Sequence record: NC_054637.1
Origin: Escherichia phage vB_EcoS Sa179lw
DNA: 46,833 nt
Reading direction: 5' to 3' (one strand)
Within the stretch, counting starts at the first letter, position 1. Every line of letters begins with the position of its first letter. The notes beneath the pieces were generated by a model. The model saw only the letters and a list, made by a program, of their open reading frames with translations, did not search any database and was not told the origin of the DNA. This document shows positions 4,783 through 45,731 of this stretch, piece by piece. The position numbers and the translations under genes were made by a program.

Positions 4783-4807
4783 AAAAGCCCCGTAAAGGGG
4801 CTTTTGA
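4783..4807. terminator. Bidirectional terminator between convergent genes
   Basis: Hairpin AAAGCCCCGTAAAGGGGCTTT. Confidence 0.7.
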
Positions 4808-6754: not shown

Positions 6755-6946
6755 TCACTCACCACTTTCTTCTAATAAAAGTTCATAGTTTGCAATGTAT
6801 GCATTAGCCAGATGATATATTTGCTCTGCTGCGCAACGCTCTGGCGAGCTAAAGTCATCAATAGAACCAGCATTGCTGAGTGCATCAACACAATTTCGGA
6901 AATCATCCATAGTATTGCGGAACATACAGTAGTACATGTTTGCCAT
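6755..6946 (-). CDS. Hypothetical protein, 63 aa
   Basis: ORF track. Confidence 0.45.
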   Translation of the reverse strand: MANMYYCMFRNTMDDFRNCVDALSNAGSIDDFSSPERCAAEQIYHLANAYIANYELLLEESGE

Positions 6947-6948
6947 GA

Positions 6949-7209
6949 TTACTCCTCATCACCCTGAAAAATGCCACCAAACTCTTCAACGAGTTCATCA
7001 ATACACTGGTCCGCCTCAGCGCAATTACCAGCGGCACTAAGCAGAATATCAACAGCCTCATCATCAGGAATGTTGATTGCTGAGAAGAACTCAACAATGC
7101 ACATTTTCACAACCTGATATTCACCTTCTGTCTGGCAAGAAGCAAAACTGCAAGCGACTGCATCAATCAGCTTGGCTTTGTCGTCACTTGGGTTATCAAT
7201 ATCAAACAT
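6949..7209 (-). CDS. Highly acidic small protein, 86 aa from MFDIDNPSDDK; first gene of an early leftward operon
   Basis: About 21 D/E versus 3 K/R; RBS AGAGGTGA then ATG at 7209; downstream of promoter at 7245-7280. Confidence 0.55.
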   Translation of the reverse strand: MFDIDNPSDDKAKLIDAVACSFASCQTEGEYQVVKMCIVEFFSAINIPDDEAVDILLSAAGNCAEADQCIDELVEEFGGIFQGDEE

Positions 7210-7244
7210 TTCATCACCTCTAACATTTATTGTTGTTTCTACGT

Positions 7245-7280
7245 CACTAACTATAAACGCCACTTCAATCTACGTCAACA
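7245..7280 (-). promoter_or_regulatory. Sigma70-like early promoter: TTGACG, 17-bp spacer, TATAGT (minus strand)
   Basis: -35 at 7273-7278 and -10 at 7250-7255 read on the minus strand; contains the recurring ATCTACGTCA motif. Confidence 0.6.
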
Positions 7281-12183: not shown

Positions 12184-12234
12184 ATCTACATCACCACCTC
12201 ACAGGTGTCAACACCACCGAGATGATATAATCAA
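12184..12234 (+). promoter_or_regulatory. Candidate late promoter for the tail assembly / tape measure operon; same architecture as 10175-10222
   Basis: AATCTACATCACC ... TGTCAACACC ... TGATATAAT at 12223-12231. Confidence 0.5.
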
Positions 12235-30789: not shown

Positions 30790-30825
30790 GCATTGACGTA
30801 GAATCATTGTTGATGTAGATTAAAA
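30790..30825 (+). promoter_or_regulatory. Rightward early promoter: TTGACG, 17-bp spacer, TAGATT
   Basis: -35 at 30793-30798, -10 at 30816-30821; carries inverted copies of the ATCTAC(A/G)TC motif. Confidence 0.6.
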
Positions 30826-35767: not shown

Positions 35768-35800
35768 TAAATCTACATCACCAACATATCTACGTCAACA
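35768..35800 (-). promoter_or_regulatory. Leftward early promoter: TTGACG, 17-bp spacer, TAGATT (minus strand)
   Basis: -35 at 35793-35798, -10 at 35770-35775 on the minus strand. Confidence 0.55.
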
Positions 35801-36702: not shown

Positions 36703-36711
36703 GGTGATGTG

Positions 36712-36906
36712 ATGATTATTGATGAAACAGAAAATGCATATGACATGCACGTAACTGAGCAAGAGCTTGAGGATGGAACCCCTGTCGTAGAGTTGTATCA
36801 AGAGAATGGCTCAGGTGTCGACTCATTTATTGGCATAGACAAACACCAAGCCTCGCAACTAATCGAAGTCCTGCAACGCTGGGTTAATGGTGAGGAGATT
36901 GAGTGA
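36712..36906 (+). CDS. Highly acidic small protein, 64 aa
   Basis: About 16 D/E versus 2 K/R; RBS GAGGTGA. Confidence 0.5.
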   Translation: MIIDETENAYDMHVTEQELEDGTPVVELYQENGSGVDSFIGIDKHQASQLIEVLQRWVNGEEIE

Positions 36907-41544: not shown

Positions 41545-41585
41545 TGATGTAGATACTATGCACCACCACTCAATCTACGTCAATA
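41545..41585 (-). promoter_or_regulatory. Candidate leftward early promoter with TTGACGTAGATTG motif (minus strand)
   Basis: -35 TTGACG at 41578-41583 on the minus strand; -10 TAGTAT lies at 19-bp spacing, so the exact -10 is uncertain. Confidence 0.4.
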
Positions 41586-44625: not shown

Positions 44626-44725
44626 ATTTACTACTCCTTTTTCGAAATTATTGTTGACCAATCTACATCATTTAGTCAATACTTATTGACGTAGATTGTA
44701 CCACAACGGAAAAGGTGATGTGGAA

Positions 44726-45178: not shown

Positions 45179-45489
45179 ATGATTTAAGCGTTGGCGACAA
45201 AGTTGTCATTAGAAATAGATATGGAGTAACCATCTCAAGAATCGTTCGTGAAACGGCTAAGCAATGGATTGTAGAAGGTACAGAGAACGGCAGCGTAAGG
45301 AGATTCAGAAAATCAGACCTTATTGAGATTGGTTGCGATGTGTGGCACATAGTTAGCATATCAAAATGCACTGACGACATAGAGAATGAGATTCGCAAAA
45401 AACAAATAGTCAGGATGATTGAGGTTAAGGGTGACTTAAGCAAGCTACCACTTACTGAGTTAGTTTCTTTATGGGAGAAAGTTAAATGA
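45166..45489 (+). CDS. Hypothetical protein, 107 aa (GTG start)
   Basis: ORF track; overlaps neighbours. Confidence 0.45.
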   Translation: MDEVNDLSVGDKVVIRNRYGVTISRIVRETAKQWIVEGTENGSVRRFRKSDLIEIGCDVWHIVSISKCTDDIENEIRKKQIVRMIEVKGDLSKLPLTELVSLWEKVK

Positions 45490-45731
45490 CAGCACCACAT
45501 ATGCCGATGATGAATGATGAAGGCTTGCTGGAGTGCCCATTCTGCAACAGCCATGAAATCAAGTTATATAACGACGATGGGATGTATTTCGCCATGTGCG
45601 AGTGCGGCTGCTCAAGTGATGTTCACATAACGAAGTTGGCGGCCGCCACCCAATGGAACACTCGCAACGGACGCCTCTACACCGCTGACGATTTCAATCA
45701 GACAGCTGAGGAGCGCGAACATGGACTATAA
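45486..45731 (+). CDS. lar: Lar-family-like restriction alleviation protein (Cys-rich), 81 aa
   Basis: LLECPFCNSHEI ... MCECGCSSDVH ... ATQWNTRNG matches the recalled Lar-family pattern (CPFCG ... second Cys pair ... AWNRR). Confidence 0.55.
   Translation: MTAPHMPMMNDEGLLECPFCNSHEIKLYNDDGMYFAMCECGCSSDVHITKLAAATQWNTRNGRLYTADDFNQTAEEREHGL

Follow-up and report, generated by a model that had tools for sequence, protein, structure and literature searches.

T7 Ocr is an elongated helical mimic of bent B-DNA that inhibits type I restriction-modification (RM) and BREX, and ArdA, which is much longer than 86 aa, has a three-domain DNA-mimic fold. Small acidic proteins produced early in phage infection are also commonly host-takeover factors, such as T7 Gp2 and T4 AsiA/Arn, and T7 Gp5.5 is likewise named in this group. 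Only about a dozen DNA-mimic anti-defence proteins have been catalogued (11 in EVADES); these usually have a broad spectrum and usually set off second-line defences.

The window analysed here is the whole 46,833-nt stretch of Escherichia phage vB_EcoS Sa179lw (NC_054637.1). It was classed as a Skatevirus-like Salmonella siphovirus and shared ~90% identity with Skatevirus/Saltrevirus-like siphoviruses from Salmonella, Shigella and E. coli; such close relatives include 64795_sal3, SeSz-2, seszw, LPST10 and BASEL Bas77. A gene for a strongly acidic 86-aa protein heads a seven-gene minus-strand operon of the window (Table 1). This gene belongs to a family, phrog_14587, that is catalogued but uncharacterised, and probably mislabelled.

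The acidic gene, its promoter and its operon

The translation of the acidic ORF was MFDIDNPSDDKAKLIDAVACSFASCQTEGEYQVVKMCIVEFFSAINIPDDEAVDILLSAAGNCAEADQCIDELVEEFGGIFQGDEE, followed by the stop codon (86 aa, beginning MFDIDNPSDDK). The protein contains 11 Asp and 10 Glu (21 acidic residues in all), 3 Lys, no Arg, no His and 5 Cys, which gives a net charge of −18 (computed −18.5 at pH 7) and a pI of ~4.05. The sequence-only reading had described an 86-aa product with about 21 Asp/Glu, 3 Lys/Arg and a net charge near −18, and this was borne out by the ORF translation and the composition count, which also placed the gene on the minus strand, a point that reading had left out. The charge per residue was −0.21, compared with −0.24 for T7 Ocr and −0.15 for T7 Gp5.9, and the protein ranked second in acidity among 76 greedy non-overlapping ORFs in the window. 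Compared with phage seszw, the codons of the acidic gene showed 18 synonymous and 2 non-synonymous differences, and compared with Bas77, 14 synonymous and 1 non-synonymous. Because synonymous changes outnumber non-synonymous ones in both comparisons, the codon pattern indicates that the acidic ORF is a real gene under purifying selection. Another very acidic small ORF was observed on the plus strand of the window at 36709–36906 (65 aa, net −14, −0.215 per residue); it belongs to phrog_13627 (function not annotated), and by profile search it was unrelated to phrog_14587.

Table 1. Positions of the acidic gene, its expression signals and its operon in the window
Feature	Position	Strand	Remarks
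Acidic 86-aa CDS, first operon gene	6949–7209 (stop codon 6949–6951)	minus	ORF translation; phrog_14587 member
Second gene, 63 aa, acidic (net −8)	6755–6946	minus	phrog_8760, function not annotated
Third gene, ParB-like/KorB-HTH DNA-binding protein, 273 aa	5944–6765	minus	
Three small ORFs, 68, 74 and 58 aa	5347–5947	minus	first two Cys-rich; variable slot
Last operon gene, 179 aa	4811–5350	minus	conflicting annotation
Intrinsic-terminator-like hairpin and T-run, operon end	4783–4805	minus	9-bp stem, 5 GC pairs
Sigma-70-like promoter TTGACG-17 nt-TATAGT	7278–7250	minus	10/12 match, top site of 4-kb region
Shine-Dalgarno AGAGGTG (GAGGTG core), 5 nt before ATG	7215–7221	minus	upstream sequence
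Two exact TGACGTAGA copies	7238–7277 (7269–7277 overlaps −35; 7238–7246 just past −10)	minus	candidate operator or promoter-family signature

The spacing between the sigma-70-like promoter and the ATG of the acidic gene was 41 nt. Both promoter hexamers were kept across the Skatevirus-like relatives, including a locus (L029) whose protein is only 72% identical, and the Shine-Dalgarno sequence of the acidic gene was conserved in the relatives as well. The sigma-70-like scan found 5 sites overall, compared with 6.5 expected by chance from shuffles; because this total was not above chance, it is the conservation and the position of the site that argue for the promoter. The conserved site lies directly before the gene, in agreement with the earlier claim that the gene is promoter-proximal in its operon. 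From the host-type promoter we infer that the acidic gene is expressed early. An alternative GTG start at 7263, which would give a protein of 104 aa, was rejected because it would begin within the −10 box, and the ATG at 7209 was taken as the start.

The two TGACGTAGA copies bracketing the promoter are part of a wider pattern. It was found that the window contained 16 matches to this 9-mer with at most one mismatch, compared with 7.1 ± 2.7 expected, and none of the 100 shuffles reached 16. The 9-mer recurred in about six other places, 50–70 nt 5' of gene starts with good Shine-Dalgarno sequences, and the copies were usually paired, 17–31 nt apart. TGACGTAGA (or TGATGTAGA) was also observed at 12185–12193, 30794–30819, 35772–35797, 41545–41582 and 44662–44695. 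The acidic-gene promoter thus looks like a member of a phage promoter family sharing the 9-mer, and the pair of copies at this promoter could be an operator or a signature of that family. Possibly, the 9-mer is a candidate site for the ParB/KorB-like protein of the same operon.

The operon lies on the strand opposite to the flanking capsid genes on one hand and the head-tail and tail genes on the other. The second gene was present in the window, in Bas77 and in SeSz-2, and absent from seszw, in which the acidic gene is immediately followed by the ParB-like gene. That this 63-aa neighbour might be a tandem paralogue of the acidic gene was considered and rejected (profile E value of 13). The product of the third gene matched HTH_ParB (E value of 2 × 10^-11), KorB (3 × 10^-6) and phrog_1033 (5 × 10^-91). 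The slot 3' of the ParB-like gene, for which the window was compared with L002 (2021–2818), L039 (3863–4660) and L038 (30294–30518), held a DNA methyltransferase in Bas77 and Bas78 and a second phrog_14587 paralogue of 74 aa in SeSz-2. As for the last gene of the operon, its 179-aa product matched the PHROGs entry 'RusA-like Holliday junction resolvase' (9 × 10^-62) and a DNA polymerase processivity-factor PHROG (1 × 10^-10), and it was named DNA pol III beta clamp in GenBank records.

The family, its distribution and its predicted structure

The sole PHROG match of the acidic protein was phrog_14587, named 'anti-restriction protein' in PHROGs v4 (E value of 1.2 × 10^-46, residues 1–82 on profile positions 1–82 of 82), and all 28 of the 28 diverse homologues that were aligned matched this PHROG only. 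The family was found to be small. A search of 5.8 billion proteins returned 18 clusters, all at least 66% identical, and an exhaustive search of 1.84 billion representatives returned only 32 relatives, which were small and acidic and nearly all of 68–89 aa; no annotated distant family was found among these 1.84 billion representatives. The net charge of the full-length homologues ranged from −7 to −20, and the acidity was kept across ~45 homologues although their identity was only 23–48%. In the family alignment, A17, G61 and D67 were invariant and a hydrophobic core was kept, and the conserved acidic columns (E30, E40, D49–E51, D54, E65, D67, D68, D71 and E72) were mostly located in the C-terminal half.

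The homologues occurred in several genomic contexts. In lambdoid phages and prophages (HK446, ECP1, L008, L033 and metagenomic prophages), the gene was located between N and cIII of the pL operon, where lambda has its ral/ea10 slot. This lambdoid version was present in 58 of 5426 complete E. coli genomes and was annotated as hypothetical every time. One homologue (L005) was the first leftward gene, directly 5' of RecT and of a 190-aa ORF without assigned function, approximately where lambda carries gam next to bet-exo. Another was found near the integrase end of an early-left operon, and yet another between the DnaB and PolA genes of a virulent-type phage.

Some genomes carry two family members. 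SeSz-2 has two paralogues, the 86-aa gene and the 74-aa copy directly 3' of the ParB-like gene; the window itself has a single copy. Two divergent members, P0019 and P0034, were also observed on the 47.8-kb contig ERR14657711_10721 (loci L005 and L037), in which P0019 adjoins a Cro-like/RecT early region and P0034 occupies the Skatevirus-type slot between capsid and tail genes. At this Skatevirus-type locus, P0034 precedes a 308-aa ORF. In Bas78, the promoter-proximal slot was occupied by an unrelated 114-aa gene (phrog_1273, function not annotated; L039 5466–5810), which replaces both the acidic gene and the 63-aa gene (window 6755–7209). Among the Escherichia Skatevirus-like records other than Bas77, no tblastn match to the acidic protein was found. 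Because Bas78–81, which are without the acidic gene, plate normally, the gene does not belong to the core functions of the group. These observations demonstrated that the phrog_14587 gene behaves as an accessory, slot-exchangeable gene. Rarity, mobility, duplication and exchange within a slot are what is typically seen in accessory genes directed at the host.

The AlphaFold2 model of the 86-aa protein, built from the 28-sequence alignment, had a pLDDT of 87.5 and a pTM of 0.76. It predicted a compact four-helix bundle with helices at residues 7–21, 28–44, 49–58 and 64–76, followed by a disordered acidic tail at residues 81–86. At the sequence level, the conserved acidic positions clustered on helices 3 and 4. 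Foldseek against the PDB returned nothing at E ≤ 0.001, and Ocr, ArdA, Gam, Gp5.9 and other known mimics were not among the structural neighbours listed.

Sequence searches gave a similar picture. Neither the single sequence nor the 28-member profile returned anything significant from Pfam, NCBIfam or the PDB sequences, and the top sub-threshold matches were Peptidase_C71 (E value of 0.0054, below cutoff), RAP80 UIM (0.025) and von Willebrand factor A1 (0.2). For the Pfam families ocr, ArdA and Gam, no match was obtained even at E ≤ 1 with the 86-aa protein or any of the 28 homologues. The hhalign probabilities of the family were 0.2% against T7 Ocr, 0.9% against Gp5.9, 0.2% against lambda Gam and 0.1% against lambda Ral. 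Weak matches to Pfam UBA were observed in 3 of the 28 members (best E value of 0.0015, below the Pfam thresholds), and residues ~38–78 were UBA-like in pattern, with a hydrophobic-x-x-A motif, an acidic loop, the invariant Gly61 and a helix.

Retention, restriction phenotypes and candidate functions

Yuan et al. (2022) reduced the genome of seszw by iterative Cas9-driven deletion, found 53 of its 81 genes to be removable and deposited 69 mutant genomes (PMC9825161). We read the retention of each gene from these deposited genomes by querying the phage collection with seszw genes and counting the records at ≥99% identity. The coat gene was found in 72 records, the acidic gene Seszw_19 in 70 (all covered ≥80%), the ParB-like gene in 70 and the 179-aa gene 17 in 47. 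Gene 17 is dispensable in seszw, because only 47 of ~70 genomes keep it, i.e. about one third have lost it. In the smallest mutant, of 36,655 bp, genes 19 and 18 are still present, although the genes around them have been lost. The sole coding changes found in gene 19 were C19G (P7A) and C142T (P48S), each of which destroys a CC, i.e. a GG PAM on the reverse strand. Such PAM-destroying point mutations point to escape from Cas9 in place of the programmed deletion. These results suggest that seszw could not tolerate the loss of gene 19 on S. Typhimurium ST56. Since the phage is already host-modified on this strain, there would be no selection for an anti-RM role.

The mutant seszw_230L (L013, MZ375339.1) carried a 47-nt deletion between two GATG repeats, corresponding approximately to 7212–7258 of the window, in addition to P7A and P48S. 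With this deletion, the acidic gene loses its −10 box, 5' UTR and Shine-Dalgarno sequence. Because seszw_230L is viable, full expression of the acidic gene is not strictly essential. The retention of gene 19 could instead reflect an effect on the expression of the downstream ParB-like gene.

The origin of the name 'anti-restriction protein' was then traced. In primary GenBank records, the homologue was called 'hypothetical protein' except in ECP1 (KY979108), where it was called 'antirestriction protein ral'; the PHROG wording appears in RefSeq re-annotations and in genomes annotated with pharokka. The probable source of the label is the single ECP1 record, in which the gene was probably named by its position. 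The label looks like a propagated positional guess, because the ECP1/HK446 gene occupies the ral slot and yet is not homologous to Ral, and the charges of the two proteins are opposite. A literature search found no experimental paper on the family and no match to the PHROG identifier or to peptide strings.

Plating on restricting hosts could be followed, as indirect evidence, in published BASEL data. Bas77 (ClaudiaMuster) carries a copy identical at 85 of 86 residues, and Bas77 and Bas78 form a natural with/without pair among the BASEL Skatevirus isolates. In experiment 1 of the BASEL raw data, the plaque counts of Bas77 were 1 × 10^9 on the vector control, 8 × 10^7 with EcoKI, 6 × 10^5 with EcoCFT_I, 3 × 10^4 with EcoRI, 500 with EcoRV, 1 × 10^3 with EcoCFT_II and 1 × 10^4 with EcoP1. 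The efficiency of plating (EOP) of Bas77 was ~0.08 with EcoKI (1 site in the genome) and ~6 × 10^-4 with EcoCFT_I (2 sites). Bas78, without the gene, showed ~0.03 and ~6 × 10^-4, respectively, and the pattern of Bas80 was alike. Bas77 was thus restricted to the same extent as Bas78, and no Ocr-like protection by the gene was found in E. coli against six systems, two each of type I, II and III. The gene also made no visible difference with RexAB, PifA, Fun/Z, Old and Tin. The BASEL panel is one without BREX (including Salmonella StySA) and without the Salmonella type I families.

The claim of an Ocr- or ArdA-like mimic is therefore supported for composition and position but not for Ocr/ArdA-like anti-restriction, since there is no homology and Bas77 is restricted. 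It is plausible that a decoy or 'mimic' inhibitor remains the most reasonable function class for the acidic protein. Our preferred reading, to which we give a probability of roughly 0.45, is an accessory role: the acidic protein would be expressed early and would act as a decoy for, or an inhibitor of, some host protein that handles DNA and is not a classical restriction enzyme. This reading was chosen because the charge density is mimic-like, the acidity is family-wide, the promoter and ribosome binding site are conserved, the gene behaves as an accessory gene in an exchangeable slot, and it is retained in seszw. In the proposed mechanism, the protein would be made first, from the host-type promoter, when the phage DNA enters. 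It would act stoichiometrically as an electrostatic decoy or inhibitor, binding and blocking a basic nucleic-acid-binding surface of the host DNA-handling protein. The likely contact surface would be the acidic stripe on helices 3 and 4 (E40, D49–E51, D54, E65, D67, D71 and E72). The target would work whatever the methylation state of the DNA, and would not be a classical type I, II or III restriction enzyme.

Of all single candidates for such a target, RecBCD comes first, although taken on its own it is unlikely; other DNA-targeting defences are the alternatives. It was favoured because it is constitutive, the phage DNA is linear, no known RecBCD inhibitor is listed in the Bas77 genome annotation, and one homologue lies 5' of RecT. 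The support is circumstantial and is partly contradicted by genes of HK446 and by the equal Old sensitivity. Abc2 and gp33, the latter a proposed RecBCD manipulator, are already encoded by HK446, whose homologue gp36 was not reported in the OLD trigger/inhibitor study. Old senses RecBCD inhibition, and the sensitivity to it was equal (~0.1) in Bas77 and Bas78. Old sensitivity as a read-out of RecBCD inhibition was set aside, since the two phages were alike. It was also considered, as a somewhat unlikely proposal, that phrog_14587 represents an unrecognised decoy or DNA-mimic fold, a four-helix bundle with a UBA-like acidic C-terminal half, directed against a modification-independent DNA-processing or defence complex (RecBCD, or a system outside the standard panels such as BREX/StySA or Gabija), and that its paralogues are tuned to different targets.

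Alternatively, the acidic protein could be a host-takeover factor that acts on RNA polymerase, a sigma factor, H-NS or HU and thereby redirects or de-represses expression. Such a factor would be needed in every infection, which fits the retention in seszw, and the TGAYGTAGA signature shared by promoters of the window suggests dedicated regulation. However, no similarity to any such protein was observed, the gene gives way to an unrelated one in Bas78 and counts among the rare accessory genes of lambdoid prophages, and paralogues within one genome are more typical of arms-race inhibitors. A takeover function is thus quite unlikely.

The protein could also be a partner or antagonist of the co-operonic ParB-like protein, that is, a decoy modulating its DNA binding, for example to time an expression switch. 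Consistent with this, family members flank the ParB-like gene in Skatevirus-like genomes (the 86-aa gene upstream, the 74-aa gene of SeSz-2 directly downstream and P0034 before the 308-aa ORF), both genes were retained together in all seszw mutants, and the 9-mer repeats around the promoter may form an operator. Nevertheless, the lambdoid, DnaB/PolA-module and integrase-proximal homologues are without a ParB-like neighbour, and the ParB-like gene is present in Bas78, which lacks the acidic one; this partnership is very doubtful. Finally, an anti-restriction protein of the Ocr, ArdA or Ral type, blocking or alleviating type I (perhaps BREX) restriction, would agree with the extreme acidity and first-gene position, as in T7 gene 0.3, with the phrog_14587 label and the homologues in the ral slot, and could have a narrow specificity for BREX/StySA, Salmonella type I or the many other systems outside the BASEL panel, but it is very unlikely, as the label probably came from the one ECP1 name, homology to lambda Ral (hhalign 0.1%, BLASTP E value of 16), Ocr or the Pfam anti-restriction families was absent, and such a gene would be expected to be dispensable under one-host passage yet was never deleted in seszw.

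If the decoy reading is true, a structurally unrelated family of acidic inhibitors would add a tractable example to the known ones. The family is present in siphoviruses of Salmonella, Klebsiella and E. coli that are used for biocontrol, as well as in lambdoid prophages, and the seszw data suggest that the acidic gene matters for growth on Salmonella. The analysis also flags an annotation error, because 'anti-restriction protein' now stands in dozens of phage genomes (RefSeq, pharokka), including candidate therapeutic and feed-additive phages. No experimental basis for this name was traced, and the phenotypic data point the other way.

Comparison with known systems

ArdA differs from the acidic protein in that no Pfam match to it was obtained and no ArdA was found among the structural neighbours. 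With lambda Ral and Rac Lar, the likeness is one of position: the lambdoid homologues share the pL slot between N and cIII, a likeness that does not apply to the window, which is from a virulent siphovirus. In contrast to this shared slot, the ECP1/HK446-type protein is not homologous to Ral, and Ral is basic, with a net charge of +3 compared with −18. As for Lar, the window separately encodes a Lar-like protein on the plus strand at 45486–45728. This protein is Cys-rich and zinc-ribbon-like, and showed 57% identity to the product of a Bas77 gene annotated 'Lar-like restriction alleviation protein'; Bas77 with this Lar-like gene is still restricted by EcoKI and EcoCFT_I.

A possible, sub-threshold likeness to UBA/TS-N-like three-helix domains lies in the pattern of residues ~38–78; the top structural neighbours included no UBA protein. 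Lambda Gam and T7 Gp5.9 differ from the family in profile, HK446 has other RecBCD-directed genes, and Old sensitivity was the same with and without the gene. On the other hand, they are likewise small, acidic, helical phage proteins, one family member lies in a gam-like position 5' of RecT, and the acidic gene would be needed regardless of DNA modification, which is consistent with its retention in seszw.

T7 Ocr differs from the acidic protein in that there is no sequence or profile similarity, the predicted compact four-helix bundle did not retrieve Ocr, and type I RM still acts on Bas77 despite its near-identical copy. In other respects the two are alike: both are small, helical and extremely acidic proteins (−18 over 86 aa compared with −28 over 117 aa for Ocr), each is encoded by the gene that comes first after a host-type promoter, and each has an acidic C-terminal tail.
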